Below, in pieces: positions 2,875 to 64,000 of a stretch of DNA of 64,000 bases (positions are counted from its first letter, which is position 1; every line of letters begins with the position of its first letter). Under the pieces are notes generated by a model. That model had not been told where the DNA came from. It did not search any database and saw only the letters and a program-made list of their open reading frames with translations. The position numbers and the translations under genes are program-made. This DNA is from an uncultured bacterium (GTDB taxonomy: Bacteria > Eisenbacteria > RBG-16-71-46): contig CAYSWZ010000037.1 in NCBI GenBank assembly GCA_964434945.1, forward strand, positions 13,049 through 77,048. The letters run 5' to 3'.

Positions 2875-2928
2875 ACCTCGTCATCGCTCGATTCAAGAGT
2901 CCCAGCCCGCTAACAAGGAGGTTTCATC

Positions 2929-3465: not shown

Positions 3466-4325
3466 GGGGGCCACGGCGCGTGCCCGGCGACCCCCGGGCC
3501 GGCGGAATGCGGGCGGGACGCACAGCGGCCGTGGCAGGCCTGCTGCTCGTCTCGAGCCTCGGCACGCCGGGCTGCTACACCACGCAGATGACGCTGCTCA
3601 AGTCCGGGCTCGACAGCCTGCGCGTGCAGGTGGATCGAATGGAGGTGCGCGATTCGGTGAGTGCCGCGACGCTCGAGGACACGCGCCGCGAACTGGCCGA
3701 GCAGAGGGACGTGCTGCTCGCCACGCGCGCCACGTCGTCCAGCGCCTCGCGGGAGACCGGAGAGACGCTCGGGCGGCTCGAGGGCAAGCTCGACGACATC
3801 ATGGCGCGCTTCCGCATCCAGTCCGAGCGGGCGCCGGCGCCGCGCTCGGGCGATTCGGCGCCCGCCGGGACGCCGCCGGCGGGCAGCAGCACCGGTTCCA
3901 TCGCGAAGGGAGGCGCTGCCGCGACGACGGGCGGCGCCGCCGCCGCCGGACCGGATCCCAACCAGCTCTACGACCAGGCCACCCAGGACCTGACGTCGGG
4001 CCGCTATGCGCTCGCGCTCGGGAGCTACCGCGACTACCTGCGGCGCTTTCCCGACACCGACCTCGCCGACAACGCACAGTACGGCGCGGGCGAGTGTTTC
4101 TTCGCCCAGTCCCAGTTCGACAGCGCGCTCGTCGAATACAACCGCGTCGGTGCACGCTGGCCGGCGGGGGATCGGGCACCGGCGGCACTGTACAAGGTGG
4201 GGCTGTGCCAGGATCGCCTCGGCCGCGCCGCGGACGCCAAGAAGACGTTCGAGAACCTGGTGAAGCGGTTCCCGCAGAGCGGCGAATCGCAACTGGCTCG
4301 TGATCGTCTCGCCACGAAGCCCTGA
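3462..4325 (+). CDS. cpoB: Tol-Pal system protein CpoB/YbgF (coiled coil + TPR)
   Basis: ATGA overlap with pal (alternative ATG at 3507). Lipoprotein-like PGC, coiled coil, TPRs (DNAQYGAGECFF, ALYKVGLC, LVKRFPQS). Confidence 0.85.
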   Translation: MRGPRRVPGDPRAGGMRAGRTAAVAGLLLVSSLGTPGCYTTQMTLLKSGLDSLRVQVDRMEVRDSVSAATLEDTRRELAEQRDVLLATRATSSSASRETGETLGRLEGKLDDIMARFRIQSERAPAPRSGDSAPAGTPPAGSSTGSIAKGGAAATTGGAAAAGPDPNQLYDQATQDLTSGRYALALGSYRDYLRRFPDTDLADNAQYGAGECFFAQSQFDSALVEYNRVGARWPAGDRAPAALYKVGLCQDRLGRAADAKKTFENLVKRFPQSGESQLARDRLATKP

Positions 4326-4362
4326 CGGGGGACCCAGAGCAGCCGTCGACCGGAGCGCGAGG

Positions 4363-6063
4363 GTGAGGCTTGCCCTCGCGCTCGTCCTGTCTGCGGGGCT
4401 CTGCCCGGTCACGGCGGCCCGCGCACAGGGGATTCCCGACAGCGTGCGAACCACGCCGCCGGACCCCGCGGACGGGTCCGCCCGGGTCCGGGCGGAAATG
4501 GCGTTCGGGCCCGCCGACGACAGCACGGTGCGCGCGCGCTGCGAGGGCGCCGTGATCCGGCAGGTCGATGTCCAGTGCCTCGACATCTTCGACCCCGTGC
4601 CGGTGGGACGGTTCTCCGGGATCTACAGCGGCATGAACAAGCTGCACATTCGCACCCGTTCGAGCACGGTGCGCTCGCTCGTGCTCGTCGAGCCCGGGCA
4701 GGTCTGGAATTCCGACCGCATCCTCGAGACCGAGCGGCTGCTGCGCCAGGTCGAGTACCTCGAGCCCGCGGTCATCCGCTCGCGGCTCGTGAACGACTCG
4801 GTCGACGTCCAGGTGGTCACGCACGACCAGTGGACGACGCAACCCGAGCTGAACCTCGAGCGCGGCGGCGGCGTCACGTACGGCTCGGTGGGATTCAGCG
4901 AGCGGAACCTGCTCGGGATGGGCCTCGGGCTGTCGCTGGCCTACCGCAACGAGCCCACCGGTCACACGCGGTCGGCGGAGCTCTCCAGCCGGCGGCTGTT
5001 CGGATCGCAGCTCGAGGGCCAGCTCAAGGCCGCCAGCGGCACGACCGGCACTTCCGACGCCGTCGCGCTGGGTGAACCCTTCCGCTCGCTCGACGACCCG
5101 CGGTCATGGTCGGCCTCGTGGTGGCGGACGAACGCGGAGCAGCTCCTGTTCAGCAGCGGGTCCGTGGTCGCGAGCTTCCCGTTCCGGTTCGAACAGGCCA
5201 CGGCCGAGCGCGGCTTCGGACATGTCTTCCCCGACGGACAGGTGCGCCGGTACACGCTGGGGATGGCGCTCTACGATCGCAATTACGGCCCGACCGTCGC
5301 CTCACCCAACGTGCCCGTCACGTTCCCCGGAGGCGAGGAGGAGCTGAAGATGCGCTGGGCGTTCGGGCGCGCGACGTTCTGGACGCCGCACTGGATCGAG
5401 CGCCGGGGCATCGAGATGTTCGACCAGGTCGAGGACTTCGACGTGGGCTCCCTGGTGAGCCTGGAGGGCGGGATGGTGATGCGCATGCTCGGCAGCACCG
5501 CCGACGAGGCCATCGCCAAGCTGCGCTTCGAGACCGGGACCGAGACCCGGCGCTTCGGCTTCGGCTACGCGCACGCGTTGATGTCCACGCGCATCCGCGG
5601 CGGCCCGCTTGAGACGCTCGCGCACATCGACTCGCGCTGGATCCAGCAGCCTTCGCAGAGCGTGACGCTGGTGGTGGCGGCGCTGGGGGAATCCGCCGAC
5701 CGCGCCCCGCGCGAGGTGCAGTACATCATCGGGGGCTTGAACGGCCTGCGCGCCTACCCGGTGCAGGCGCTCGCCGGCACCCAGGTCTGGCGCTTGAACG
5801 GCGAGACACGCTGGGTCGCAGCCCGGGACGTCCTGAGCCTGGTGAGCTTGGGCGGAGCCGCGTTCGTGGACGCGGCGCGGGCGTGGGGGCCGGGCAGCAA
5901 CGGGGAGCCCTGGCACCACGACGCGGGCTTCGGTCTGCGGCTGTCGTTCCCGCACGCGGCGATGCACCAGGTGGCCCGCTTCGACGTCGCGTTCCCCCTG
6001 TCGCCGACGCGCGACGGACGCCGCGAAGCGGTATTCTCGTTCGGCTCGTCGCAGGCCTTCTGA
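4363..6063 (+). CDS. Omp85/BamA-TamA family outer-membrane beta-barrel with POTRA-like N-terminus
   Basis: Signal peptide, POTRA-like segment (ILETERLLRQVEYL...DVQVVTHDQW), loop-6-like GLRAYP, DAGFGLRL, terminal Phe. Start inferred at GTG 4363. Confidence 0.75.
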   Translation: MRLALALVLSAGLCPVTAARAQGIPDSVRTTPPDPADGSARVRAEMAFGPADDSTVRARCEGAVIRQVDVQCLDIFDPVPVGRFSGIYSGMNKLHIRTRSSTVRSLVLVEPGQVWNSDRILETERLLRQVEYLEPAVIRSRLVNDSVDVQVVTHDQWTTQPELNLERGGGVTYGSVGFSERNLLGMGLGLSLAYRNEPTGHTRSAELSSRRLFGSQLEGQLKAASGTTGTSDAVALGEPFRSLDDPRSWSASWWRTNAEQLLFSSGSVVASFPFRFEQATAERGFGHVFPDGQVRRYTLGMALYDRNYGPTVASPNVPVTFPGGEEELKMRWAFGRATFWTPHWIERRGIEMFDQVEDFDVGSLVSLEGGMVMRMLGSTADEAIAKLRFETGTETRRFGFGYAHALMSTRIRGGPLETLAHIDSRWIQQPSQSVTLVVAALGESADRAPREVQYIIGGLNGLRAYPVQALAGTQVWRLNGETRWVAARDVLSLVSLGGAAFVDAARAWGPGSNGEPWHHDAGFGLRLSFPHAAMHQVARFDVAFPLSPTRDGRREAVFSFGSSQAF

Positions 6064-41975: not shown

Positions 41976-42749
41976 ATGCCTGGCTTGGGTACCTTGCTCG
42001 TTCCGTTCCTGTTGTTCCTGGGTTTCGTCGTCCTGCTGGTGCTGGTCAACTCGATCAAGGTCGTGCGCGAGTACGAACGGCTCGTGGTGTTCCGGCTCGG
42101 CCTGCTCGTGGGCGAGCGGGGACCCGGCCTCATCATCCTGATCCCGGGCATCGAGCGCGCCGTCAAGGTCGGGCTGCGCACGGTGACCATGGACGTTCCG
42201 TCGCAGGACGTGATCACCAAGGACAACGTCTCGGTGAAGGTGAACGCCGTCATCTACTTCCGGGTCATCGACTCGTCGCGCGCCATCGTGCAGGTGGAGA
42301 ACTTCCTTTACGCCACGAGCCAGATCGCGCAGACGACGCTGCGCTCGATCCTCGGCGAACAGGAGCTGGACGAACTGCTGTCCGAGCGCGAACGCCTGAA
42401 CCAGGCGCTGCAGCAGGTCATCGACCGGCAGACCGAGCCGTGGGGCGTGAAGGTGAGCACGGTCGAGGTGAAGAACGTGGACCTGCCGCAGGAGATGCAG
42501 CGCGCCATGGCGCGACAGGCCGAGGCGGAGCGCGAGCGCCGCGCCAAGGTGATCGCGGCCGAGGGCGAGTACCAGGCCTCCGCGCGTCTCGCCGAGGCGG
42601 CGGCGATCATCGGTCGCGAGCCGGCGGCGATGACGCTGCGCTATCTCCAGACCCTGGCGGAGATCGCCACCGAGAACAACAGCACCACGATCTTCCCGGT
42701 GCCGATCGACCTGATCGCCGCGTTCACGGGGTCGTTCAAGAAGGCCTGA
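41976..42749 (+). CDS. SPFH/stomatin (slipin) family protein
   Basis: [46 protein letters not shown]. Confidence 0.93.
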
Positions 42750-42840
42750 GGAGAGCCCGGGACGGGGCATTTTCCGGGTGCGGGCGGGCGGGCAGGGGAG
42801 TAGCATCCGGGAGAGCCAGCGACCGCTGGAGGATACGTCC

Positions 42841-45318
42841 GTGCTCGCTCGCCTGCGTGCCCCCGCCGCCTCGTGCGGAATCCGATTCGCCTTCGTCCTC
42901 GCCGCGCCGCTGCTCGCGGCGCCCGCGGCCGCCACGCCGCCGCGGTTCGCGGCGCCGTTCATCGCCTATCCGGTCGCGTTCGGGCCTTCGGCCGTGATCG
43001 CCTGCGACGTGAACGGAGACGGCCGCCCGGACGTGATCACCGTGGGCGACGTCGGCGCCCAGGTGAGACTCGGGCTCGGCGACGGCACGCTCGGCCCCAT
43101 TGCCACGTTCCCGGGTGGCGGGGGTCCGTTCCTCGTGGCGGGGGACTTGAACAACGACGGCCACCCCGACCTCGTGATGGGCGGCGACTCGATCTCGGTC
43201 GCGGTCGAGCTCGGCCTCGGCGACGGCACGTTCGGGCCGGCGGCGAGGTTCGCGGTGACGAAGGCCCCGGAGGCGGTGGTGCTCGCGGACTTCGACGGCG
43301 ACGGCAATCTCGACCTGGCGAGCCTGAGCACGAGGGCCGGCACGTTGACCGTGCGGCGCGGGCTCGGCGACGGCACGTTCGCACCGGGCGCGGACATCGT
43401 CGTCGGGGGCTCGCCCGTCGGTCTCGCGGTGGGACCACTCGACGGCGACGCCCACCCGGACCTGCTCGTGACCCAGACCTCACCCGCCCAGGTGACCCCG
43501 CTGATCGGCGATGGCGCCGGGGGGTTCCACGCCGCGGCCCCGGTCGCGCTCCCCGAACCCGGCGGGCGCGTGTTGCTCGCCGATCTCGATGGCGACACCC
43601 GGCTCGACGCGGTCGTCGTCGCGTCGTACACGCACCACGCGTTCATCCTCCGTGGACTCGGCGGGGGCGGTTTCGACGTGCCGGCGACGCTGGCGCTGCC
43701 GGGCTCGTGCACCGCCGTCGCGGTCGGCGACTTGAACGGCGATCAGGTCCCCGACCTGGTCTTCAATGGTTACGATCGCAACAGTGTCGTCGCGCTCCTC
43801 GGGCACGGGGATGCGACCTTCGGCGCGCCGCAGGAGTTCATCGCCCCCCGCTCGCCGATCGGCGTGGCGCTCGCCGACCTGAACGGCGGCGGCAAGACCG
43901 ACCTCGTGGTGGTGAGCAACTTCAGCACGGTCTCGGTCCACATGGGAAACGGGGACGGCACGTTCGGCGGAACACGGGATGTCGCGACGGGCCTGTACCC
44001 GTCGGCGATCGCGACCGGGGATCTCAACCGCGACGGCCACGTGGACGTGGTCACCGCGAACGCGGGGGACGGAACGCTGTCGGTGCTGTTCGGGCACGGC
44101 GACGGCACATTCGAGCCGAGGCACGACCTTGCCGCCGGCATCGATCCCGACGGCGTGACGCTGGCGGACGTGAACCTCGACGGCAAGCTCGACATCGTGT
44201 GCGCGAACGCCGGGCCGGGCACGCAGACATCCTCCACCGTTTCGGTGTTCCTCGGGGATGGGGCGGGCGCGTTCGCACCGCGGCTCGACATCCCGGTGGG
44301 TCGCTGGCCCGGCGCGGTGGCGGTCGGCGACCTGGACGGCGACGGCCTGCCCGACCTGGCAGTCGCCGAGAACGACTTCAACGAGACGCTCAGCCTCCTG
44401 CATGGCCTCGGCAACGGCGGCTTCACGAATCGACAGGGATTCCTGTTCGGGAGCAACGCCACGTCGGTGCGGATCGGTGACGCCACGGGCGACGGGCACG
44501 CCGACGTCGTGCTCGCGACGTCGTGGCCGAGCGGCAAGGTGTTCGTGCTACCGGGGCACTCCGATGGCACCTATGGGACGGTGGTCGAGCTGGACACACC
44601 CCAGTCCCCCCTGGGTGTGGGACTCGCGGACGTCACCGGCGACGGCCGGATCGACGTCGTGGCGGGAAACACGGGCCTGTCGGTCTTCCCCGGCACCGCG
44701 GGTGGCGGTTTCGGGCCACGCGTGGACTTCGGGGCGGGGGGCGGCCCGCTCGCGCTCGGGGACCTCGATGCCGACGGCATCCCCGACGCCGTGACCGCGA
44801 ACGACTGGCAGAGCAACTCGCTCTCGGTGCTGAGCAGCGCGCCGGGCAGTGCGTTCTCGAATCGCGTGGATTACGGCGCGGGAGATCGACCGGTCGCGGT
44901 GGCGATGGCCGACCTCAACGGTGACGGCCTCACCGACCTGGTCGCGGCGAACACCCAGTCGAACACGGTCTCGATCCTGCTCAACACGGGCGGCCTGGCC
45001 TGGCTGCCGTGGCTCGGCGTGCCGCCGGCTGCCGCCCGCGGCGTCTCGCTCGCGCTCCGCGCGCACCCGAATCCCGCGCGCGAAGCGCTCCTCCTCGAGT
45101 TCACGCTGCCGCATGCGAGCGCAGCCACGCTGCGCGTGTACGACGTCGCCGGCCGGCAGCTCGGCCCGCCCGTCTCGGGCACCTACGGCGCGGGGACGAA
45201 TCGCGTGCGCTGGGAGCAGCCACTCGCTGCCGCGCACCGCGCGTGGGCCGGCGTCTGCTTCGCCGAGATCTCGGCCGCGGGCGAGCGCGCCGTCTGCCGC
45301 GTCGTGCTGCTGCCCTAG
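42841..45318 (+). CDS. Secreted FG-GAP/VCBS repeat protein with T9SS-type/FlgD-like C-terminal domain
   Basis: SD GGAGG, signal peptide, 14 counted D-x-[ND]-x-D-G-x-x-D-type repeats, C-terminal HPNP...FTLP...LRVYDVAGR...W...GVCF. Confidence 0.85.
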   Translation: MLARLRAPAASCGIRFAFVLAAPLLAAPAAATPPRFAAPFIAYPVAFGPSAVIACDVNGDGRPDVITVGDVGAQVRLGLGDGTLGPIATFPGGGGPFLVAGDLNNDGHPDLVMGGDSISVAVELGLGDGTFGPAARFAVTKAPEAVVLADFDGDGNLDLASLSTRAGTLTVRRGLGDGTFAPGADIVVGGSPVGLAVGPLDGDAHPDLLVTQTSPAQVTPLIGDGAGGFHAAAPVALPEPGGRVLLADLDGDTRLDAVVVASYTHHAFILRGLGGGGFDVPATLALPGSCTAVAVGDLNGDQVPDLVFNGYDRNSVVALLGHGDATFGAPQEFIAPRSPIGVALADLNGGGKTDLVVVSNFSTVSVHMGNGDGTFGGTRDVATGLYPSAIATGDLNRDGHVDVVTANAGDGTLSVLFGHGDGTFEPRHDLAAGIDPDGVTLADVNLDGKLDIVCANAGPGTQTSSTVSVFLGDGAGAFAPRLDIPVGRWPGAVAVGDLDGDGLPDLAVAENDFNETLSLLHGLGNGGFTNRQGFLFGSNATSVRIGDATGDGHADVVLATSWPSGKVFVLPGHSDGTYGTVVELDTPQSPLGVGLADVTGDGRIDVVAGNTGLSVFPGTAGGGFGPRVDFGAGGGPLALGDLDADGIPDAVTANDWQSNSLSVLSSAPGSAFSNRVDYGAGDRPVAVAMADLNGDGLTDLVAANTQSNTVSILLNTGGLAWLPWLGVPPAAARGVSLALRAHPNPAREALLLEFTLPHASAATLRVYDVAGRQLGPPVSGTYGAGTNRVRWEQPLAAAHRAWAGVCFAEISAAGERAVCRVVLLP

Positions 45319-53712: not shown

Positions 53713-54878
53713 GGGCGCCGCGCGGCTTCTCCGGCGCCCGGCTCCTCGCCGGCGCTTGCCTCGCGTGCGCTGCCGCGGCGCCGGCCGCGCCACCCGCGAG
53801 CTCGTCGCCGGCCGCGCCGCCGGCTCCCGCCGTCCTCACCGACCGCGACGGGTTCCGCCTCGCCGTCGCGTCCTACGAGTTCGTGTTCCCGTTCGACCAT
53901 GCGGCGCACCCGACGTTTCGCACCGAATGGTGGTACTACACCGGTCACCTCGAGGCGGGGACGCGCTCGTTCGGCTACGAGCTCACGTTCTTCCGGGTCG
54001 GCGTGCCGTCCACCGACCCGGCCGACAGCGGCTCGGCGTGGCGCGCCCACCAGCTGCTGTTCCGGCACGTCGCGCTCACCGACGAGCAGGGGAACCACTT
54101 CCTGTTCGACGACCGCGGCGAGCGCGATGCGCTCGACCTCGCCGGCGCGGACAGCACGCGCTACCTGGTCTGGGTCGGCGACGACTATGCCGGGCTCGAG
54201 CCGGATCGCCGGACGCACCGGCTGGTCGCGAAGCCGGAGGCATTCACACTCGACCTCCACCTCACGCCGGAGAAGCCGCCGGTCGTGCACGGTGAGAACG
54301 GCGTGAGCCGGAAGGCCGAGGGACAGGGGAACGCGTCGCACTACTACTCGTTCACGCGGCTCCGCACCCGCGGCCGTCTCCGGCTCGGCCGGGACACGCT
54401 GGCGGTGGACGGGCTGTCGTGGATGGACCACGAGTTCGCGAGCAACCACCTCGGGGACACGCACGCGGGCTGGGACTGGTTCAGCGTCCAGCTCGCGGAC
54501 GGCCGCGATCTCATGCTCTACCGGCTCCGCTTGAAGGACGGCGGGCTCGAGCCGTTCTCCTCCGGCACGCTCGTGGACTCGAGCGGCGGCGCGCGGCACA
54601 TCCGCTACGACGAGTTCGACACCGGTCCGACCGGCGAATGGGTGAGCCCGCACACGGGGGCGCACTATCCGAGCGGCTGGATCGTGCGGCTCCCGGGACT
54701 CGGACTCGAGCTCCACCTCACGCCCAGCGTGCTCGACCAGGAGCTGGTCGCCCGCAGCATGGGCGGGCTCGCGTACTGGGAGGGGAGCGTGCGCGTGACC
54801 GGCACCAGCAAGGGCAGGCCCGTGACCGGGCAGGGCTACGTGGAGTTGACGGGATATGCGGGCAAGTCGCCGTTCTGA
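53709..54878 (+). CDS. Lipocalin-like AttH/carotenoid 1,2-hydratase family protein
   Basis: FPFDHAAHP...EWWYYTG, YELTFFR, YYSFTRL, WMDHEF, WDWFSVQL, YPSGW, YWEG, GYVELTGY. Confidence 0.85.
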   Translation: MRAPRGFSGARLLAGACLACAAAAPAAPPASSSPAAPPAPAVLTDRDGFRLAVASYEFVFPFDHAAHPTFRTEWWYYTGHLEAGTRSFGYELTFFRVGVPSTDPADSGSAWRAHQLLFRHVALTDEQGNHFLFDDRGERDALDLAGADSTRYLVWVGDDYAGLEPDRRTHRLVAKPEAFTLDLHLTPEKPPVVHGENGVSRKAEGQGNASHYYSFTRLRTRGRLRLGRDTLAVDGLSWMDHEFASNHLGDTHAGWDWFSVQLADGRDLMLYRLRLKDGGLEPFSSGTLVDSSGGARHIRYDEFDTGPTGEWVSPHTGAHYPSGWIVRLPGLGLELHLTPSVLDQELVARSMGGLAYWEGSVRVTGTSKGRPVTGQGYVELTGYAGKSPF

Positions 54879-54924
54879 CCGGCCGCGTTGGACGGGCCGC
54901 TCGGGCTTGGCTAGGCTGTCCTCC

Positions 54925-55578
54925 GTGGCCCGCACCCCTCTCGCCTGCGTGATGTTCGTGGCCGCCGCGGTCGCGGCGGGCTGCGGTGGCGCGCCGTCGC
55001 CCGGGGGGGCTCCGCCGCCACGGCAGTCGACGCTCGCGCCCTCGAACGCCGTGTCCTCGGCCAGCGACTCGGTGGGCGCGTTGCCGGGCTCGGCGAACGC
55101 CCTGTTCGTCTACCGGTTCCGCCAGCTCTCGCCGCCGAGCACCGGCACGTTCTCGTACAAGGACCGCGACCTGTCGTTCTCGTTCCGGCCGTCGCCGAAC
55201 GTGCTCTACTTCGGCGTCGAGAACCTGCAGGGCCGGCCGGTGACGATCGATTGGGATCGCTCGGTGTTCTACGATCCGGCCGGCCGCACCAGCAAGGTGG
55301 GGCACACGAGCACGCGCTGGCGCGACCGCTTCTCGACCCAGACGCCCGCGCAGGTGCTGCCGCAGCAGCGATACACCGACTACGTGTTCTCGCTCGACGA
55401 CCTGCTCGACCCGGGCGCGGACGAGGACACGCAGCTGCGCCGCCCGCTGCTGCCGGAGGACACCAGTGCGCCCACCTACACGGGCAAGCAGTTCGGCGTG
55501 GACCTCGTCGTGATGGTCGAGAACCAGCCACGGACGTACACCATCCGGTTCCAGGTCCAGAGCGTGATCCCGCGCTGA
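54925..55578 (+). CDS. Hypothetical lipoprotein
   Basis: Hydrophobic signal ending in lipobox AAGC, beta-rich body, coding-like codon use. Start uncertain. Confidence 0.6.
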   Translation: MARTPLACVMFVAAAVAAGCGGAPSPGGAPPPRQSTLAPSNAVSSASDSVGALPGSANALFVYRFRQLSPPSTGTFSYKDRDLSFSFRPSPNVLYFGVENLQGRPVTIDWDRSVFYDPAGRTSKVGHTSTRWRDRFSTQTPAQVLPQQRYTDYVFSLDDLLDPGADEDTQLRRPLLPEDTSAPTYTGKQFGVDLVVMVENQPRTYTIRFQVQSVIPR

Positions 55579-55595
55579 GCCCGCTGAGCCCCCTG

Positions 55596-57998
55596 ATGGT
55601 CCCGCGGCTCGCGAGCCCTGCCCGGCGTCTCGTCCGGCTCGTCGCGGCCGCGTGCGTCGCGATCGCGGCCGCGGTCCCGCTCGCCGCCGGCGGCGCCGAG
55701 CTGCAACCGCCCCGCTTCACGCGCGAGCAGATGGAGGCCGCGCTCACCGACGCGCCGCCGTTCCGGTTCGTCTATGGCACGCGCGATCCCGCCTCGGCGC
55801 AGATCCTCCGCGCGCGCGCGCTGCTGCTCGCGCAGCGCGCGTTCGGCGCGGACTCGAGCCGCGTCGTGGCGGACCGGAACGTGGACGAAGCCGGGTTCGC
55901 CTCCGGGCCGATGTTCCTGCTCGGAGGTCCCGACGAGAACGAATGGACGCGGCGCCTGGCGGGCGCGCTGCCGGTGCAGTTCGAGCGTCACGCGTTCCGC
56001 TGGCAGGGCCGGCTCTACGACCAGCCGCTCGATGCGCTCCAGCTCGCGTGGCCGAATCCGCTCGCTCCGAACCGCTTCCTGATCCTGTCCGTGGGGAACT
56101 CGCCCGAGGCGACGGCGCGGCGCGGCGGGTTCGCGTTCGGGGACGAGGACTGGCGCATCGTGCGGGCCGGCGAGCTGGTGCGGAGCGGGACGTTCGCCCA
56201 GGACCCGGCGCACCCGTGGCGCTACGACGCCGCGCGCGACCACGATCGCGAGAGCGAACGGGAACGGTACGCGGCGGGCCTCCGCTCGCTCTCCGACCGC
56301 ACGCTGTTGGTGCGCACGCCCGCCGGTCTCGCGACGGCTCCGGGTGTGTTCGCCTCCGCCACCGCACTGCTCGCGAGCATGTCGCGCGACGGGCTCGCGG
56401 CTCCGGCAGGCGCGCCGCCGCTCGTGCTCACGCTCTATCGCTCGCTCGAGCAGAAGGGCGAGCTCACCCGCGACACGCACCCGGAGCACTGGGTCGCCGC
56501 CGGCGCCGCCCCCGCCGCGCACGCGGCGCTCCCGTTCGGGCGCGAGACGCTCGACCTGTGGAGCGTGGCCGCCCTGCGGCTTGTGCAGCTCGGCGGCGTC
56601 GCGCCGTCGCGTTTCCTCGTGCCCGCCGCGGCGGAGTTCGCCGGGCGCTGGCAGGGCGAGCCGCTCGAGCACGCACTGTCCCGCCTCTACTTCGGGGGCG
56701 TGCTCCCCACCGCGTCCGAGGCCGCCACGCGCACGACGGACTGGCGCTCGCCGCTGGTGTGGACGCCGGCGCGGGCGTTGCTCGTGCGCGCCGTCTGGGA
56801 GTGCGCGCCGGCGGCCTCCCGCCGCGCCGCGCTCCTCGCGCTCGTCCGCCGCGACCCGCCCGGCCAGCTCGACAGCCTGTGCCGGCTCGCCGGGCCGCCC
56901 GCTGCGAGCGTCGAGCGGCGGTACCGCGTGCTCGCGGATTCGCTGGCGCGCGCGGGCCGCTCGGGATTCGAGCTGGCGCACCGTGAACCGTGGCGGCCGG
57001 AGCAGGGCTTCCAGCGCGGCGTCTGCCTCGCGCACCGCGTCGGCCTGAGCCGCGGGTATCTCTCGGCGGAGTGCGCGCAGCAGCTGCGGGTGCTGCACGA
57101 CGCCGGCGCCGGCTGGGTGTCGCTCACGCCGTTCGCATGGCTCTCGGACCCGGCGGCGCCGGAGCTCTCCAACAGCAGCGACAGCGGGCCGGATGGCGAG
57201 AGCGACGAGGCGGTGTGCGAGGCGGCCGCGCGCGCGCACGCGCTCGGTCTCCGCGTGTGGCTCAAGCCGCACGTGTGGACGCGCGGCTGGGCTGGCAATC
57301 TCCAGTTCACCCCCGCCGGCTGGCAGCGCTTCTTCGACGGCTACGGCGAGCTGGCGCTCCACTGGGCGCTGCTGGCGGAACGCGAGGGGATCGAGGGGCT
57401 GTTCGTGGGCCACGAGCTCGCGAGCAGCACCGCGCTCGCGCCGGACCGCTGGCGCACGTTGATCGGCGTGATCCGGCGCGTCTACACGGGAACGCTCTCC
57501 TACAGCGCCAACTGGGACGAGGTCGCGCACGTGCCGTTCTGGGACGCGCTCGACCTGATCGGCGTGTCGTTCTACGCGCCGCTCGCCGAGAAGCCTACAC
57601 GCGACCCGGCCACACTCCGCGCGGGCGCGGCGCGCACGCTCTCCGGCCTGCACGCGGTCTCCCGGCGCTTCGGCCGGCCGGTCGTCATCTCCGAGCTGGG
57701 ATACACGCCGAGCCCCGACGCTCCACTTCGACCGTGGGAGGCGGCGCGGGTCGGCGCCGATCCCGACCTGCAGCGCGCCTGCTACGAGGCGGCGCTCGCC
57801 GCGATCGAGCCCTGTGACTGGCTCGCCGGCGCCTACTTCTGGAAGTGGGGCAGCAGCGCCCGGGCGGGCGACGACGCGTTCGATCCGCGCGGCCAGCCCG
57901 CGGAGTCCGTGCTCGTCCAGGCGCTCCGGTCGTGGCAGGGACGGCCGGTGCGCGTGCCCAGGCGCGAAGCGGGCGCCGGGCTCACCGGGGAGCCGTGA
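55596..57998 (+). CDS. Secreted multidomain protein with C-terminal GH113-like (beta-mannanase-type) TIM barrel
   Basis: Signal peptide. C-terminal LKPHVW...W...GHEL...YTGTLSYSANWDE...FWDALDLIGVSFYAPL...ISELGY. N-terminal ~450 aa unassigned. Confidence 0.7.
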   Translation: MVPRLASPARRLVRLVAAACVAIAAAVPLAAGGAELQPPRFTREQMEAALTDAPPFRFVYGTRDPASAQILRARALLLAQRAFGADSSRVVADRNVDEAGFASGPMFLLGGPDENEWTRRLAGALPVQFERHAFRWQGRLYDQPLDALQLAWPNPLAPNRFLILSVGNSPEATARRGGFAFGDEDWRIVRAGELVRSGTFAQDPAHPWRYDAARDHDRESERERYAAGLRSLSDRTLLVRTPAGLATAPGVFASATALLASMSRDGLAAPAGAPPLVLTLYRSLEQKGELTRDTHPEHWVAAGAAPAAHAALPFGRETLDLWSVAALRLVQLGGVAPSRFLVPAAAEFAGRWQGEPLEHALSRLYFGGVLPTASEAATRTTDWRSPLVWTPARALLVRAVWECAPAASRRAALLALVRRDPPGQLDSLCRLAGPPAASVERRYRVLADSLARAGRSGFELAHREPWRPEQGFQRGVCLAHRVGLSRGYLSAECAQQLRVLHDAGAGWVSLTPFAWLSDPAAPELSNSSDSGPDGESDEAVCEAAARAHALGLRVWLKPHVWTRGWAGNLQFTPAGWQRFFDGYGELALHWALLAEREGIEGLFVGHELASSTALAPDRWRTLIGVIRRVYTGTLSYSANWDEVAHVPFWDALDLIGVSFYAPLAEKPTRDPATLRAGAARTLSGLHAVSRRFGRPVVISELGYTPSPDAPLRPWEAARVGADPDLQRACYEAALAAIEPCDWLAGAYFWKWGSSARAGDDAFDPRGQPAESVLVQALRSWQGRPVRVPRREAGAGLTGEP

Positions 57999-58044
57999 GC
58001 CCTCGCCACACCGCCTCCGCCCGCGCCGCAGCGGCGCGGCCCCG

Positions 58045-58734
58045 CTAACGGTAGTGCACCTTCACGGCGCCCCAGGTGGTGTTGCGCGTCGGGGTGGACT
58101 TGCAGCAGTGGTCGTCGCTGTCGAACGTCGCCGACGCGAGGATCACTTCGTCCCCGTTCCGGAGGATCAGGTGGAGCGCGTCGTGCTCGACGTCGTCGTC
58201 ATCGCAACCGGCGTGGGAGCCGCGCCGGACCTCGTTCAGGATCAGCGTCGCCTGGCCCGGGAGGATGAAGGTCTGGTTCTCCTGGCCGGTGACCACCACG
58301 CGGCGACCACCGAACGTGAGGCCCGCGATCACCGACTGCAGATCATGGGGGCCGGGCGGCTTGCAGCACGCATCGTCCTCGTCGGACTCGATGTGCGTCC
58401 ACCTGACCTCGGCGCGTGTGCCCTTCAGGAGCCAACCCGAGCCGAGCTGGGTGTGGGTGTGTCCCTTGCAGTGGTCGCCGTGCGACTCGCTCTCCACGGA
58501 GTCGATGTGCAGCACGTCGCCGTAGGAGAGGCCGCCGCTCGCGCTCGAGCGCGACCCGCCGGAGAGAAGGCTCATCCGGCCGCTGTCGCCGTGCGTCATG
58601 GAAGCGAGCCCGAAGCTCGAGAGGTTGGCGTAGCAACCGAGCGCCCGCCCGATCACGTCGGCCGACGCGGGAGGACTCGCGGTCACCAGCAGGAGAACGA
58701 CAACGGCATGGCACAGCCCAGGGCGACGATGCAT
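58045..58734 (-). CDS. Secreted choice-of-anchor-P-like protein ending in TTWGAVKVHYR
   Basis: SD GGAGG, signal peptide (ASA/D), segment LTFGGRRVVV...NQTFILPG...LILNE...DALHL...VILASA resembling choice-of-anchor P. Confidence 0.65.
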   Translation of the reverse strand: MHRRPGLCHAVVVLLLVTASPPASADVIGRALGCYANLSSFGLASMTHGDSGRMSLLSGGSRSSASGGLSYGDVLHIDSVESESHGDHCKGHTHTQLGSGWLLKGTRAEVRWTHIESDEDDACCKPPGPHDLQSVIAGLTFGGRRVVVTGQENQTFILPGQATLILNEVRRGSHAGCDDDDVEHDALHLILRNGDEVILASATFDSDDHCCKSTPTRNTTWGAVKVHYR

Positions 58735-59017
58735 GACGACCTCCGTGGCGAGCGGCAAGGGGGGGAATTCGCACCGCCCGGATGTTGTTCTCGTCCCGAC
58801 ACTTGAACCGGGAGCGCGACTGCGCTCACGCTGGGCGTGCGGGCGAGGCTTCTGTCACCCCGTGGGGGAGGGCGCGTGGAATTCTGCCCATTTCCCGCGG
58901 CCGGAACAAGCCCCATCTCCTGATATCAAAGGATTATTGCCGCTCCCGCCGCTCGGGGCCGTGGAGCGAACGCTCCCGGCAGCACCCGGGCCCTTCCCGT
59001 GCCGGGAATGGCGAGGA

Positions 59018-59043
59018 AGCCCCGGGGGTGGTCCCCCGGGGCT
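59018..59043. terminator. Strong hairpin downstream of the metalloprotease gene (probable terminator)
   Basis: AGCCCCGGGGG-TGGT-CCCCCGGGGCT: perfect 11-bp stem, but only a weak U tract. Confidence 0.45.
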
Positions 59044-59083
59044 CCGCGCGCTCCTGCCGGGTTGTGCTCGACCCCGGCCGTGA

Positions 59084-61834
59084 CTAGGGCGTCACCGCGC
59101 CTCCCGGCGGCCCTCCCGGGCGCCCGGCGGCGGCCGCGTCGGTCTGGCGCCCGGCGTCGAGCGCCCGCTTGATGCGAGCGCGCGTCTCGAGCAGGTGCGC
59201 TCGCGTGTCGTCCCCCATCGGCGTCGCGGCCGCGAGCGCGCGGGCACAGCGGGAATCCACCCGCGTCAGCGTCAGGCGCGCGAGTGCGCGGGCATCGTCC
59301 GGGGCGGCCGGCGGAGGGTCGGCGACCAGGTTCGCCATCCGGTCCACGAACGCCCGCTGCAGTTCCCGGCGCGTGTGCGGCCCCTCGAGCGATTTGATCC
59401 CCGCCGGGTTCGCGCTCCCCACCTCGCCCCAGATCGCCTTCGTCAGCCGGTCGAAGTGCTCGGCGAGCTTGTAGCTGTCGGCCGAGCGCGACTCCTGCTC
59501 GCGCAGCCGGGCGAGGAGCGGGCCCGAGGTGACCCCGTTCAGGAGCACGGTCTGGATCGCGAGCACCCGGTCGTTCCACGCGTAGTCCTGTCGCCCGGCG
59601 AACGTGCCACCCGGGCCCATGCCCCAGTGCGACCAGCGATTGGGCGCCATGCGCTCGAGCAGCTTGCCCGGGGCGCTCATGGCGTCGGCCGCCCACACCC
59701 GCTGGGCGAGGAAGTCCACCGCCTCGCGCTGCTTCGCCGCGGGCACCGGGTCCACCGGGTTCTTCTCGCCCGGCTGGCCGCGTTCCACGCGCGACATGTA
59801 CGAGCCGCCCACGTACTTGACGGCCATGCCGGCGGCGATCGCGTACTGCTGTGCCATCGTGTCCATCGCCCGGCGCAGCGCGGTCAGGTCGCCCGACTTG
59901 CCCACGATGCGCTCCTCGAAGCCCGGCTCGCGCCACAGCTTCGCCAGGTACGCCGTCCGATCCTTCGCGAACTGCAGCGGGTCGCTGCCGAGATCGTAGA
60001 TGTTCGAGCGCGGGTCCGGCGCGTCGCTCGGATACGTATCCTCGTCCGTCGAGTACTCGTGGCCGGGGGCGAGCGACTCGTCCGCGATCTTCCGGGCGAA
60101 GGCGTAGTCCGCATCCGGGGTCGCGGCGCCGCTCGGCGTGTAGCCGTAGCGGATCGCCCACAGGTCGCACGTCCCGGGCGTGGTCGTGTACCAGTCGCCC
60201 TGCTTCTGGTGCCCGTAGTCGAAGTTCGGGGTCGGGTAGTCCATGACCGACGAGTAGAGCCCGTGCGTCGAGGTGAAGCTCGCATCCTGGAGCTGGTCGT
60301 AGGGCGTGCTGGTGCTCGAGCGGAAGTTGTGACGCAGGCCGAGCGCGTGCCCGACCTCGTGCATCACCGCCCACTCCACCGCGGTCTTGAGGAACGCGTC
60401 GGGCACCGGGCTGCCGGGCTCGAGCGTGCCCCCCATCAGGAGCGCGATGTGCTGCATCGCGCCTGCGGAGGCCAGAGCGTCACCCGCCATGCACAGGCGG
60501 TCGAGCCTCGTTCCCGGGGGCAGGCCCTCGAGCGCGAACTCGGGCAACGCGCTCTTCGCGATGGCCTCGGGTCCTGCGAACCGCCGGTAGGCGTTCGAGT
60601 AGTTCTGGAAGATGCTCGCCTCGAACAGGATGTCCGAGTCGAAGATCTCGCCCGTGCGCGGGTCCACGCGGGAGGGTCCGATCGCGCCGAAGCTCGGCTC
60701 GTTCGAGGTGATCCAGCGGATCGTGCTGTAGCGGACGTCCTCCGGATCCCAGTCGGGATCGTCCCTGGGGGGGTCCTTCGCGAGGATGGCGTTCTTGAAG
60801 CCGGCGGCTTCGAACGCCTTCTGCCACTTCTCGATCCCCTCCTTCACCCAGGGCCGGAACTTGTCCGGCACCGTCCAGTCCACGTAGTACACGATCGGCT
60901 TGACCGGCTCCGACACCGCGGCGGACGGGTCCTTCTTCTCCAGCCGCCAGCGGTGGATCCCGCGCAGCCAGAAGCTCTCCTTGTCGTCGCGGCCGAAGTC
61001 CTTGGTCGCGTCGAGGAAATAGCCGACCCGGTTGTCCGCGTAGCGCACCGGCATCGGCGTCGCCGGCAGGCGGGTGAACGAGTAGTGCACGCCGATCGGG
61101 ATGTAGCGGTTGTCCGGGACCGCGTCGAGGGACAGGTGCGAGCGGTCGAGCGGCGAAAACGTGAGCGTGGCCTCGAGCTCGGTGTTGTCGGGGAACGTCT
61201 TCAAGCTCCCGAGCACCGAGCGCTCCTTGTCGAAGCGCACCGCGACGTTGCCGAATGCGCCCTTCAGGCTCTCGGTGAGGTCGGTGACGTCGGACAGCAG
61301 CAGCGCGCCGAGGTCGATGAGCACCGCCTTCGAGGAATCCTGTTCGCTCTCGATCTTGAACGCCTGCACGATGGAATTCGGGATCGACAACTCGCGCGCC
61401 TTGTCGATGGGAGAGCCCTTGGGCGCCGTGAACTGCGTGTTCACCTGCACCAGCAGGATGCGGTCGCCGTGGCGCTCCCACTGCAGCATGCGGTCGTCGA
61501 TCGGCAGACCGCCGAGCGTGAAGTTGGAGCCGATGCCGCGCGCCATGCTGACGACGTAGAGGAACGGCTGGTCCAGCTGGGCCTTGCCGAGCTCGAGATA
61601 GAGGTTGTCGCGCTTCTTCCACAGCGTGAAGAAGCCCTTCTTCTGCTCGGCATCCTTGGTGAGCTTGGACCACTCGGCGAACGGCTTCTCGGGGGCGCCC
61701 GCGGCGGCGGACGCGGCACCGCCGGCCGGGGCACTCGACTTGCCCTTGCCCTTCTTGTCGGCGGCGCTCGGTGTGGCGGCCAGCGCAAGGAGCAGCAGGC
61801 TCGCGAGCAGCCGATTCGGGACTCGGAATCGCAT
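59084..61834 (-). CDS. Secreted zinc-dependent metalloprotease (DUF5117/DUF4953-type metzincin)
   Basis: Signal peptide, RYADNRVGYF, RWRLEKKD, KPIVYY, WQKAFEAAGF, HEVGHALGLRHNF, Met-turn SSVMDY. Confidence 0.88.
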   Translation of the reverse strand: MRFRVPNRLLASLLLLALAATPSAADKKGKGKSSAPAGGAASAAAGAPEKPFAEWSKLTKDAEQKKGFFTLWKKRDNLYLELGKAQLDQPFLYVVSMARGIGSNFTLGGLPIDDRMLQWERHGDRILLVQVNTQFTAPKGSPIDKARELSIPNSIVQAFKIESEQDSSKAVLIDLGALLLSDVTDLTESLKGAFGNVAVRFDKERSVLGSLKTFPDNTELEATLTFSPLDRSHLSLDAVPDNRYIPIGVHYSFTRLPATPMPVRYADNRVGYFLDATKDFGRDDKESFWLRGIHRWRLEKKDPSAAVSEPVKPIVYYVDWTVPDKFRPWVKEGIEKWQKAFEAAGFKNAILAKDPPRDDPDWDPEDVRYSTIRWITSNEPSFGAIGPSRVDPRTGEIFDSDILFEASIFQNYSNAYRRFAGPEAIAKSALPEFALEGLPPGTRLDRLCMAGDALASAGAMQHIALLMGGTLEPGSPVPDAFLKTAVEWAVMHEVGHALGLRHNFRSSTSTPYDQLQDASFTSTHGLYSSVMDYPTPNFDYGHQKQGDWYTTTPGTCDLWAIRYGYTPSGAATPDADYAFARKIADESLAPGHEYSTDEDTYPSDAPDPRSNIYDLGSDPLQFAKDRTAYLAKLWREPGFEERIVGKSGDLTALRRAMDTMAQQYAIAAGMAVKYVGGSYMSRVERGQPGEKNPVDPVPAAKQREAVDFLAQRVWAADAMSAPGKLLERMAPNRWSHWGMGPGGTFAGRQDYAWNDRVLAIQTVLLNGVTSGPLLARLREQESRSADSYKLAEHFDRLTKAIWGEVGSANPAGIKSLEGPHTRRELQRAFVDRMANLVADPPPAAPDDARALARLTLTRVDSRCARALAAATPMGDDTRAHLLETRARIKRALDAGRQTDAAAAGRPGGPPGGAVTP

Positions 61835-62089
61835 GGGGAGAACTCCTCGGCGCGGCGGGAAGCGTCCCGCCGCAGGATGACGGCGCGCCGCGGGCCCGGG
61901 GACGGGATGCGCGGCGGGGGACAGGCGCGCGCGACCGCGCGCCGATGCGACCGGACACGCTAGGGGAGTGTCGGGGTGCGCCCAATGCGGCCGAGACCGG
62001 CGCGGCAATCACCCGGACCGGCGCTCGCCCCGCTCCGCGAGCGCGGCGCGGCGAGCGGCCGGCCCGCTGGCCCGGTTGCGATCCCGCGA

Positions 62090-62590
62090 CTACCCGAGTT
62101 CCAGCCTGTTCGGGCGCTTCATCCGGTAGACCCGGCTCGGCCTGCCGTCGAACTCGCCTTCGAACTCGAGTTGCATCCCGAGCCGCTCGAGCACGCGGCA
62201 CGACGCGGGATTGTCGGGGTCGGTCACCGCCCAGGCGCCCGTGATCTCCGGCGAAGCGGCGAAGAGCCGCGACAGCACCGCCCGTCCCGCCTCGGTGGCG
62301 AGGCCCCTGCCGCGTGCCTCCGGCACCAGGCCGTAGTAAAGCTCCGGCTCGCGCGCGGACTCGCGCGGGCGGACTCCAAAGTAGCCGACGGGCCCGCTCC
62401 GGTCGTGCAGCATCCAGAGCCCGAAGCCGTGCGCCGCGAACTGTTCCGCGTTCCGCTCGACGAGCGCGCGCACACGCGCGTCGCGCGCGGGGTCGGGTGG
62501 CCCGTCGGCGCGCATCGCGAGAAGTGCCGGGAGGTCGTGGTCCGCGGCCGGCGTCAGCGTCAGCCGGCCGCTCGTGAGCGCACCGGTCAC
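62090..62590 (-). CDS. GNAT family N-acetyltransferase (RimJ/RimL-like)
   Basis: RLTLTP, GFGLW, PELYYGL...RGRGLATEA, NPASCRVLERLGM. GTGA-coupled to the upstream gene. Confidence 0.88.
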   Translation of the reverse strand: MTGALTSGRLTLTPAADHDLPALLAMRADGPPDPARDARVRALVERNAEQFAAHGFGLWMLHDRSGPVGYFGVRPRESAREPELYYGLVPEARGRGLATEAGRAVLSRLFAASPEITGAWAVTDPDNPASCRVLERLGMQLEFEGEFDGRPSRVYRMKRPNRLELG

Positions 62591-63954
62591 GGCTCGCGAT
62601 GCCGCTGGGCCGTGAGCAGTGCGAGGCCGATCCGCCGGGCGCGCGCGCGCCACAGCACGTCGCTCACCCCGACGCCCGCATAGAGCACGACGAGCGGCTC
62701 CACGGGCACGCGCAGGCGGAGCGCTCCCCAGTAGAGGACGGCGCCCAGGCTGAAGGCGGCCAGCACCCAGAGTGGCAGGAGCTGGAAGTAGCGCCGCGAG
62801 CCGCGCAGCGTTCGCACGAGGCCCCACGCCGCGAGCGGGAAGAGGCCGAGCGACCAGAGCAGCAGCGGGTCGACGGCGGCGAGCGCGCGGGCCAGCCACG
62901 AGCGCCCGGTGAACCACCGTCCGGTGGAAGGAGTCGCGGAGTTCCACCTCCAGAAGCGTGCGAGCTTGGCGAGGGCCATGCGCGGCCAGTCCCCGACGTG
63001 CGAGCCGAGAAACGCGACCGCCTCTCGCCCCGCGCGCCGGTCCACCTCCACCTCGGAGAGCCCGCGGAAGCGGGTCGCCCACGGCTCGGTGGTGAGGATG
63101 CCGGTGGCGCCGCCGCGCAGGTCCGGATCGTTCCAGACCACGGCGTTGTTGGCATCGAGGAGCGAGCGCCCCCCGCCGGTGGTGATGGGAACGAACGCGT
63201 GCAGGCTCACGGCATTGCGGAGCGTCCACGGCAGCACCACGAGCCCCACGCCGGTGAGCAGCAACCCCACCTGGCGCAGCCGCTCGCGCGGGGCGAGCAG
63301 CAACCCGAGCGGGATCCAGGCCCAGAACGTGACCACGAGCGGCAGCGGCAATGCCGTGGGCCGGGTGAGCGCCGCGGCGCCCCACACGAGGCCGGCGCCG
63401 AGCGCGCGGCCGGCCCGCGGCTGCTTCAGCCAGGACACGCTCGCGAGGAGAGACGCGAGGAGCATCACCGAGAACAAGGGCTCGGTGAGCACGTAGCCCG
63501 AGAAGAAGACGAGGAGGGGATGCACGACCGCGATCCAGCCCGCGGTCCGGCCGACCATCGCCCCGAACATCATCGTTCCGAGCTGGCGGAGGAGCGGAGG
63601 GACGAGCGCGCCGAACACGCACATGAGCAGGACCGCCGCGACCGGCGAGTGCCCGACGACGCGATAGAGCATGCTGAGCGCGAACGGCAGCCCGGGCGGC
63701 ACGAACGCGGTGGGATAGGACCCGCCCGAGCCGACGAGCCGGAATCCCATGCCGCGGGCGAGGTTCCATGCCACCGTGTCGTAGGTGACGGAGTCGGACG
63801 ACGGGGCCGCCCGCGGGCCGTAGATCACCCACGCGTACCCGACCCGCAGCACGAGTGCCGCCGCGAACATCGCGAGCGCCTCGCCCGATGGTGTGGGGAA
63901 GCGGCGAAGGGCCGGTGTGCGGCGGGGTGGTCGGTCGTCGGCGCGCTGCACCAT
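62587..63954 (-). CDS. ArnT/PMT-like (GT-C) integral membrane glycosyltransferase
   Basis: SDSVTYD (DxxxY), PPGLP, LTEPLF, ALTRP, PWTLRN, many TM helices. Confidence 0.8.
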   Translation of the reverse strand: MVQRADDRPPRRTPALRRFPTPSGEALAMFAAALVLRVGYAWVIYGPRAAPSSDSVTYDTVAWNLARGMGFRLVGSGGSYPTAFVPPGLPFALSMLYRVVGHSPVAAVLLMCVFGALVPPLLRQLGTMMFGAMVGRTAGWIAVVHPLLVFFSGYVLTEPLFSVMLLASLLASVSWLKQPRAGRALGAGLVWGAAALTRPTALPLPLVVTFWAWIPLGLLLAPRERLRQVGLLLTGVGLVVLPWTLRNAVSLHAFVPITTGGGRSLLDANNAVVWNDPDLRGGATGILTTEPWATRFRGLSEVEVDRRAGREAVAFLGSHVGDWPRMALAKLARFWRWNSATPSTGRWFTGRSWLARALAAVDPLLLWSLGLFPLAAWGLVRTLRGSRRYFQLLPLWVLAAFSLGAVLYWGALRLRVPVEPLVVLYAGVGVSDVLWRARARRIGLALLTAQRHREP

Positions 63955-64000
63955 GGGCCAATCGTAGCAGGTGGCGCGGGCCGCAATCGTCAGGGAATCC

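Follow-up and report, generated by a model that had tools for sequence, protein, structure and literature searches.

The tail gene and its product

The subject of this report is the C-terminal end of a small secreted protein encoded in a 64-kb stretch of DNA (hereafter the window, meaning the whole 64,000 nucleotides analysed) from an uncultured bacterium of the Eisenbacteria. The gene has the following features:

58045..58734, minus strand: whole gene, encoding a secreted protein of 229 amino acids (aa) with signal peptide, choice-of-anchor P body, linker and C-terminal tag
58660..58734, minus strand: Sec-type signal peptide, residues 1-25, MHRRPGLCHAVVVLLLVTASPPASA, with predicted cleavage between ASA and D (a heuristic reading of the sequence, not SignalP)
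58123..58650, minus strand: choice-of-anchor P domain, the passenger (residues 29-204), rich in beta strands and with conserved pairs of Cys (NF040603 match and AlphaFold strands)
58099..58107, minus strand: C-C-K, vicinal cysteines ending the passenger domain before the linker (C210/C211 nearly invariant among orthologues)
58078..58098, minus strand: linker S-T-P-T-R-N-T, the local version of a [PAV]-[VT]-P-[VTA]-[ER]-x-x spacer (seen in the position-wise composition of 126 tails on unrelated passengers)
58048..58077, minus strand: core tag T-W-G-A-V-K-V-H-Y-R, consensus [ST]-W-G-x-[IVL]-K-[SA]-[LMI]-Y-[RK]-COOH (sequence, orthologues and genome scans)
58045..58047, minus strand: TAG stop codon immediately 3' of the terminal Arg (sequence), this terminal position being a defining property of the tag

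A sequence-only reading of this locus had seen a signal-peptide protein with a body like choice-of-anchor P and, at its very end, a candidate protein-sorting signal. Its description of the gene was borne out. The minus strand from 58045 to 58098 translates as S-T-P-T-R-N-T-T-W-G-A-V-K-V-H-Y-R-TAG, directly after the C-C-K. The N-terminus, MHRRPGLCHAVVVLLLVTASPPASA followed by D, reads as a Sec-type signal peptide, whose position and hydrophobic core are kept in the orthologues, and the start, MHRRPGL, is confirmed by the fact that the identical 229-aa product was also called on two independent metagenome contigs (JGI and Logan). Residues 29-204 match the NCBIfam model NF040603 (choice_anch_P) at 44.6-44.7 bits, the curated cut-off being 27, so that the passenger domain qualifies as a member of that family. 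The protein as a whole has no Pfam match, and its residues 205-229 match no Pfam or NCBIfam model, even at E<=10. The body contains two invariant Cys-Cys pairs, C123-C124 and C210-C211 (58363-58368 and 58102-58107, minus strand), and C89 and C177 are also invariant.

We found 25 relatives of the window protein; one of these matches is frame-shifted and the other 24 are full-length orthologues with 45-71% identity. All 24 end in [STNR]W[GT]x[VL]Kx.Y[RK], with W, G, K, Y and R each at least 90% conserved, while the linker is variable. Within the window the back-translated motif with its stop occurs once (and in 0 of 100 dinucleotide shuffles), and none of the other open reading frames (ORFs) of the window ends in it.

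Composition and strictly terminal position of the tag

With respect to other genomes, we scanned a 185,579-species genome collection for the DNA pattern WSN TGG GGN NNN NTN AAG NNN NNN TAC CGN TRR. This gave at least 129 matches at no fewer than 120 loci, from at least 93 assemblies. The pattern admits TGG in the place of the stop codon, and about 25% TGG would be expected by chance; among the matches listed, 129 of 129 end in a true stop and none in TGG. A relaxed form of the motif, applied to the six-frame translation of 0.84 Mb of the scan loci, occurs 149 times: 147 of these occurrences abut a stop, the other two have one further residue, and internal occurrences are absent. The original scan had not selected 20 of the 149. 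The metagenome loci give the same picture, with 110 of 114 relaxed-motif matches abutting a stop, three followed by one residue and one cut by the end of its contig. Matches to the motif are thus many and strictly terminal, as the sequence-only reading had expected. Searching a large protein index with a 40-column profile of 114 tails yielded nine candidates, all of them short ORF fragments ending in the tail, in confirmation of the motif.

The sequence-only reading had described a terminal Trp-Gly/Lys/Tyr-Arg core, and this part stands. The conserved module is nevertheless longer, about 20 aa, comprising an optional Cys, a Pro-rich linker of the type [Cys]-P-[VT]-P-[VT]-[ER] and the 10-residue core tag, as seen in 126 tails from unrelated proteins. 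Scored across these proteins, and only at the positions that the scan pattern leaves free, the preferences (numbered from the C-terminus) are:

-20..-18: Cys (56% of the unrelated tail proteins have a Cys within -22..-17, against a background of 2.4% per position)
-17: P/A/V
-16: V/T
-15: P
-14: V/T/A
-13: E/R
-4: S/A
-3: L/M/I

The Lys at -5 is invariant. The free positions of the tail are conserved as amino acids, and the x positions vary in residue. The nucleotide information amounts to only about 0.3 bit at the free third codon positions and to less than 0.2 bit directly after the stop; since neither the free third positions nor the DNA after the stop is conserved, selection acts on the peptide and not on a DNA element.

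Considering how short the motif is, one might suspect an artefact: the motif could be there by chance, or belong to a conserved DNA repeat or a terminator lying across gene ends. Apart from this shortness nothing speaks for such an explanation, and we regard it as scarcely credible. Chance is excluded by the empty shuffles and by the true stop in all of the 129 matches listed, and a repeat or terminator by the low nucleotide information at the free third positions and after the stop; moreover, the x residues vary and the matches come from few phyla.

Five paralogous tail proteins are encoded in tandem at one locus (L061:1646-7847). Four of them have Phe in place of Tyr and end in ...G[IL]FR or ...CLFR; the remaining one ends in ...GLYR. 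In a further, sixth paralogue the tail has decayed to ...EEHDEIKDLYR, and the Trp-Gly is gone.

The proteins that carry the tag

Signal peptides and gene starts of the tail proteins were assigned by simple heuristics. By these, 87 of the 103 complete tail ORFs of at least 100 aa in the genome-scan loci have a signal-peptide-like N-terminus from a Met, and most of the remainder have one after a non-ATG start, much as the sequence-only reading had anticipated. Only 6 of the 87 N-termini are lipoprotein-like. The proteins are small (median 243 aa) and, as had also been foreseen, their passengers are diverse: once the last 22 residues are removed, the 103 proteins fall into 66 BLAST-unrelated clusters. 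Their Pfam domains include beta-helix/NosD, lamin-tail (LTD), NHL and other propellers, PMP repeats, PD40 and phosphoesterase, and also CBM20, DPP-IV, MAM, PPC and pectate-lyase; the Pfam scan of the tail proteins revealed no family common to all. These domains are typically extracytoplasmic.

Comparison of the tag with known sorting signals

Members of the choice-of-anchor P family can end in several ways. Our orthologue profile search among 1.84 billion representatives retrieved 206 relatives, and the ends of the best 150 of these 206 were inspected. Among these 150 there are 23 with a strict tail, about 18 tail variants with 0-5 extra residues, two PEP-CTERM-like ends (P0114 and P0168), one LPXTG-like end (P0162) and many with no anchor or with another domain. 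The tail, the PEP-CTERM-like and the LPXTG-like ends all begin at the same boundary of the choice-of-anchor P body. The tail therefore occupies the anchor slot, as had been proposed, because homologous passengers bear alternative anchors at the same point. Other passengers have the following NCBIfam relatives: the ScyF PEP-CTERM protein, ExeM-GG and choice-of-anchor Y, as well as the rhombosortase-, myxosortase- and T9SS-dependent M36 peptidases (T9SS, type IX secretion system).

The tag resembles the short modular C-terminal signals PEP-CTERM (exosortase), LPXTG (sortase), GlyGly-CTERM (rhombosortase) and MYXO-CTERM in that each of them is found on many unrelated secreted proteins of one lineage and can fill the same slot after choice-of-anchor domains. 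It also has, as PEP-CTERM-type signals do, a small signature motif, here [VT]-P-[VT]-[ER], before its terminal segment. However, these signals consist of a signature followed by a transmembrane (TM) helix and a basic cluster, and the tag has no TM helix, as the sequence-only reading had noticed. In nearly all tail proteins the best 16-residue Kyte-Doolittle mean within the last 40 aa lies at about 0-1.6, a single outlier reaching 2.2; the PEP-CTERM- and LPXTG-like relatives have about 2.0-2.3. The NCBIfam sorting-signal models find no match on the window protein at E<=10. Lacking a TM helix, the tag is not expected to be cleaved by a sortase-like enzyme that acts within the membrane or is embedded in it.

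Two other assignments were considered and rejected. The beta-signal of outer membrane proteins (OMPs), a C-terminal aromatic residue ending the last barrel strand, does not fit a tail that ends in Arg or Lys on soluble domains; the lineage uses an ordinary aromatic beta-signal, unlike the YR tail, as indicated by the Omp85 barrel of the window, which ends in ...SSQAF. Nor is the tag a truncated T9SS C-terminal domain (CTD), since the stop codons are real and the proteins complete.

The loci that encode tail proteins also encode 47 T9SS type A CTD proteins, and 9 of the 9 tested among these neighbours exceed the TIGR04183 cut-off. No CTD was found on the tail proteins themselves, either with Pfam and NCBIfam (0/104) or with a hidden Markov model (HMM) of the lineage-specific CTD (0/106) that finds the 47 neighbours; the predicted mutual exclusion of the two signals was thus upheld. 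In six tail proteins the passenger is homologous to that of a CTD protein. At one locus (L066) two adjacent paralogues, 37% identical over 219 aa, carry one the tail and the other a CTD, and distant homologues of a Cloacimonadota tail family (P0234 and P0236) have PF18962 and PF13860 where the tail would be. In the window itself, an FG-GAP protein (42715-45315, plus strand; 867 aa from stop to stop, with 14 FG-GAP_3 stretches) ends in a lineage-type T9SS CTD (residues 784-866, E 6.6e-17 with an HMM built from the CTDs of related loci). Its C-terminal stretch matches neither NCBIfam TIGR04183 nor Pfam, which implies that the standard models under-call T9SS cargo in this lineage.

Tag and type A CTD are alike in being C-terminal, non-TM signals on Sec-exported proteins of the FCB (Fibrobacteres-Chlorobi-Bacteroidetes) group, found in the same genomes and sometimes on paralogous passengers. 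Both end in hydrophobic residues and a terminal Arg or Lys, with a further basic residue 4-5 positions upstream: the CTDs of the scan loci end in [KR]-hydrophobic(4)-[RK] and the tail in K-[SA]-hydrophobic-Y-[RK]. Secretion by way of the type A CTD depends on T9SS components (SprA/Sov, PorV, PorU); for the tag, the observed relation to the T9SS is co-occurrence with CTD cargo, both in the scan loci and in the window. The CTD differs, however, in that it folds into a beta-sandwich, is 40-100 aa long and contains the motifs B, D (GxY) and E (PMC11969387, PMC11285876), whereas the tag has about 20 aa, 10 of them core, and is predicted to form a short helix on a flexible linker. The tag proteins are also smaller than the CTD proteins, the median of the latter being 681 aa (stop-to-stop ORFs).

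Taken together, the tag is modular, strictly C-terminal, Sec-dependent (by predicted signal peptides), exclusive of the CTD and located in the anchor slot. On homologous passengers it is interchangeable with the T9SS CTD, PEP-CTERM and LPXTG.

Distribution

The sequence-only reading had attributed near-identical tails to many secreted proteins of Eisenbacteria- and Krumholzibacteria-like genomes. The loci of the genome scan among the matches listed, by their submitters' labels, are distributed as follows:

Eisenbacteria / Eiseniibacteriota: 43 loci
Krumholzibacteria: 3 loci
Latescibacterota: 2 loci
Gemmatimonadota: 3 loci
Fibrobacter(aceae): 4 loci
other taxon names: 6 loci
"bacterium" without further name: 59 loci

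Thus 55 of the 61 taxon-named loci among the matches listed belong to the first five labels, and the attribution holds for the two taxa named. The restriction to such a lineage does not, as the tag also occurs in Latescibacterota, in metagenome-assembled genomes (MAGs) labelled Gemmatimonadota or Fibrobacter and in Cloacimonadota. The last were recovered with a low-GC codon pattern (AAA, TAT, TAA) scanned against metagenome contigs, which gave at least 88 ORFs that have genuine tails and are either long or cut by the contig end, their contigs ranging from 29% to 72% GC, and, among the matches listed, about 32 chance matches in short ORFs. A low-GC family of about 240 aa, ending in SWGKIKSLYR or SWGKIKSIYK, belongs to Candidatus Cloacimonadota by its NCBI names; some of its members are named "predicted extracellular nuclease" by JGI. 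The tag is thus a property of several FCB-group phyla and not of Eisenbacteria and Krumholzibacteria alone, and among the matches listed it is confined to T9SS-bearing phyla of that group. Rough extrapolation from one tail per 64 kb in the window and about one unselected tail per 42 kb in the loci puts the load at tens of tags per genome.

The six loci with other names include one clear chance match. Tail proteins that look genuine occur in MAGs with non-FCB labels: L026 and L096 (Limnocylindria), L049 (Kerfeldbacteria), L065 (Verrucomicrobiia) and L081 (Anaerolineaceae). The contig of L081 also encodes a T9SS CTD protein and is for this reason probably mis-binned; mis-binned contigs are the likely explanation for all of these, rather than a wider distribution. 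The same GC-rich pattern has only six matches in all of IMG/VR, about four of them apparently genuine: the contigs L123, L125, L126 and L127 have long ORFs with a typical linker and tail. They could be phage proteins carrying the tag of their host, cargo borne by prophages, or host DNA on contigs wrongly classed as viral.

Predicted structure of the tail

An AlphaFold2 model of the window protein, made from the orthologue alignment, has a confident, beta-rich body with mostly high pLDDT (predicted local distance difference test) and the signal peptide as a helix at residues 6-18. Residues 209-229 fall below a pLDDT of 50 and include a short helix at 223-226. In the unrelated Cloacimonadota family the body exceeds 90, and the linker and tail are at 57-64 with a helix at residues 230-238, over SWGKIKSLY. 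Thus, in the models of two unrelated families, the tail is predicted to lie outside the passenger fold. For the choice-of-anchor P body, Foldseek retrieved no significant PDB neighbour (best E 0.05, template-modelling score <0.2). Drawn on a helical wheel, the W, [IVL], [LMI] and Y of the tail lie on one face, with a mean hydrophobic moment of 0.45-0.53 at 100-110 degrees; the moment at the beta periodicity of 170-180 degrees is equally high (0.49-0.50), so that amphipathicity does not discriminate a helix from a strand.

Such a tail might be a self-sufficient membrane anchor, an amphipathic helix lying in the plane of the membrane with interfacial Trp and Tyr and snorkelling Lys and Arg, and in need of no dedicated receptor. 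The Escherichia coli penicillin-binding protein PBP5/DacA and the membrane-targeting sequence of MinD are examples of short terminal helices that follow a flexible linker on an otherwise soluble protein. The predicted helices, their single hydrophobic face and the flexible Pro-rich linker that separates the tail from the body are all compatible with this idea, but we think it unlikely. Ten residues with a net hydrophobicity of about -0.1 would make a weak anchor, and the helical moment is matched by that at the beta periodicity. Generic lipid anchors, moreover, need not keep W, G, K and Y invariant, nor stand strictly at the end of the protein, in phyla whose GC ranges from 29% to 72%: in PBP5 and MinD the hydrophobic pattern is conserved and not specific residues, and these anchors are family-specific instead of being shuffled over dozens of unrelated passengers. 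Finally, the passengers look extracellular (CBM20, pectate-lyase-like, PMP-repeat).

It is also conceivable that the tail has nothing to do with targeting and is a structural cap, an oligomerisation or partner-binding peptide, or a tag for degradation or quality control. No machinery gene was recognised near the tail genes, and proteins as small as these could be subunits that dock on a common scaffold. The models of two unrelated families, with their tails detached from the fold, suggest otherwise, as do the 66 unrelated passengers and the replacement, on homologous ones, of recognised sorting signals by the tail; furthermore, we know of no precedent for a degron on roughly 1-2% of the exported proteins that is conserved across phyla. 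A non-targeting role thus seems quite improbable.

A proposed portable sorting or anchoring tag

In view of these properties, we consider it probable, at roughly 60%, that the C-terminal 20 or so residues are a portable envelope-sorting or anchoring tag. A protein of this type would be exported by Sec through its N-terminal signal peptide and fold in the periplasm, steps that follow from its sequence. A dedicated envelope receptor would then read the short Trp/Tyr/Lys/Arg tail, which is probably helical, ends in a free C-terminus and would be presented by the flexible Pro-rich linker. This receptor would direct the passenger to the cell surface or the outer membrane, or retain it there. The tag would in this way parallel the role of the T9SS CTD, PEP-CTERM or LPXTG on homologous passengers. 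The destination and the receptor are what we infer, as would be any cleavage of the tag. A protein receptor is favoured over generic lipid binding by the invariant residues and the terminal position. Very short, strictly C-terminal peptides with invariant residues that are read by a protein receptor have well-known counterparts in the peroxisomal targeting signal PTS1 (-SKL, read by PEX5), in the ligand of the KDEL receptor and in PDZ ligands such as the YxF of OMPs recognised by DegS. These differ from the tag in operating in other compartments and organisms, and a few tag variants tolerate 1-5 extra residues.

The receptor could be linked to the T9SS, as a PorV-like shuttle or adaptor, or it could be an independent receptor or peptidase; the sequence-only reading had thought of a PorV-like barrel or a dedicated peptidase. 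We hold the two to be about equally likely, because the tag is found in T9SS-bearing FCB phyla and passengers swap between the tag and the type A CTD. The phyletic overlap, the swapping of passengers and the similar basic-hydrophobic ends favour a link to the T9SS. Against it, the functional T9SS signals described so far are 40 aa or longer and contain motifs B, D and E (PMC11969387), and their Ig-like fold is reported to be essential (PMC11285876).

Several observations weigh against interpreting the tail as a sorting tag, or limit how far that interpretation can be carried. At about 20 aa it is far shorter than any functional T9SS signal described (PMC11969387). No recurrent neighbour gene emerged as machinery from the 120 loci, the window or the syntenic contigs. 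Some relatives extend 1-5 residues past the motif (...LYRD, ...LYRN, ...LYRDATR, ...ALYTD and ...SRYHH; P0039, P0042, P0051, P0064, P0068, P0082, P0084, P0098, L200 and L233), so that the Arg need not always bear a free carboxylate; such extensions may be a lineage-specific relaxation or decay of the tag. Finally, both scan patterns are codon-biased, that of the genome scan towards GC-rich codons, so that the counts are lower bounds and the per-genome numbers rough, and the taxon labels are the submitters' own.

Another mode of attachment to be considered is a tether to peptidoglycan. Braun's lipoprotein Lpp of E. coli ends in ...T-K-Y-R-K-COOH and is attached to peptidoglycan by LdtA/B/C. By analogy, the conserved Lys of the tag, or the terminal Lys of its YK variants, might be cross-linked to meso-diaminopimelate by an L,D-transpeptidase. 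There is a superficial likeness between ...K-x-[LI]-Y-[RK]-COOH and the Lpp end, the Lys at -5 is invariant, the Cloacimonadota tails can end in ...SIYK and the proteins are Sec-exported. But the terminal residue is mostly Arg and interchangeable with Lys, and is thus unlikely to be a nucleophile; the types of passenger point to surface or extracellular roles rather than periplasmic ones, and no YkuD-type gene was seen nearby in the window or on the syntenic and Cloacimonadota contigs. We therefore judge such a tether to be very improbable.

To return to the proposed sorting tag, its novelty was assessed against models and literature. No model of Pfam-A (2025) or NCBIfam 20.0 (2026) covers the tail in the window protein or in the scanned tail proteins, and a full-text literature search (choice-of-anchor, Eisenbacteria sorting, the motif, and FCB C-terminal sorting and T9SS) retrieved no description of it, in agreement with the suggestion of the sequence-only reading that it lies outside the defined families. 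The tag is probably a modular C-terminal sorting signal by kind, outside the known families and without the TM helix or the folded domain of the existing classes. One can go further and speculate that it marks an unrecognised sorting pathway, parallel to the T9SS, in the FCB phyla other than Bacteroidota (Eisenbacteria, Krumholzibacteria, Latescibacterota, Cloacimonadota and relatives), served by a receptor and perhaps a peptidase or attachment enzyme of its own; this pathway would handle tens of small secreted proteins per genome, and among C-terminal signals for export or anchoring that lack a TM helix no shorter one would be known in bacteria. We put this forward only as a tentative proposal, more doubtful than probable.

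In the cases of LPXTG, PEP-CTERM, GlyGly-CTERM and the T9SS CTD, a recurrent tail was noticed first, and a dedicated machine was found by way of it. The present tag has the same bioinformatic signature, being modular and terminal, on signal-peptide proteins with dozens of different passengers, interchangeable with other anchors and found in defined phyla. How it is read should nonetheless differ from all of the known cases, because it has neither a TM helix nor a folded domain. The phyla concerned are uncultured or barely cultured, yet they are abundant in soils, sediments and anaerobic digesters, where their exoproteome determines the degradation of polymers. A signature for a whole class of their exported proteins would improve the prediction of their secretomes, serve as a handle for phylogenetic profiling toward the cognate receptor and supply a very small candidate tag for export or display.

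Gene neighbourhood

When the 640 ORFs from the 120 tail-bearing loci were clustered, the only large non-cargo clusters were T9SS-CTD proteins, two-component regulators, ABC ATPases and TPR (tetratricopeptide repeat) proteins. The neighbours in the window are GH113, a Met-zincin with DUF4953, PMT_2, MacB/FtsX, G6PD/6PGD, FG-GAP and TolQ/TonB/OmpA/Omp85. The last four are an envelope cluster at 3-6060 (plus strand), which comprises TolQ/ExbB, a TonB C-terminal domain protein, an OmpA/Pal-like protein and the Omp85-family barrel. No candidate machinery was recognised among the window neighbours or on the syntenic orthologue contigs.

The gene order of the tail locus (54850-64000) is PMT_2 glycosyltransferase – secreted Met-zincin (DUF5118/DUF5117/DUF4953) – tail gene – convergent GH113, with the MacB/FtsX ABC transporter downstream. 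The order from PMT_2 to MacB/FtsX is kept around a 57%-identical orthologue on two other contigs (L249 and L250), and AttH is annotated in the orthologue loci only, not in the window. This conserved neighbourhood may be concerned with mannan or glycoprotein processing. In Cloacimonadota, the gene of the 238-aa tail protein lies directly downstream of that of a SurA-like periplasmic peptidyl-prolyl isomerase, on the same strand in two independent assemblies (L251:8126-10717 and L252), an adjacency that is probably coincidental.

The extent of the GH113 gene varies with the gene call. Its ORF in the window (55251-57998, plus strand) has 915 aa from stop to stop, with the GH113 domain at residues 603-875 only, and the gene was called at 539 aa on a JGI contig versus 816 aa on an ENA contig. 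A separate ORF of 242 aa with high GC at third codon positions (54850-55578) overlaps its 5' part.

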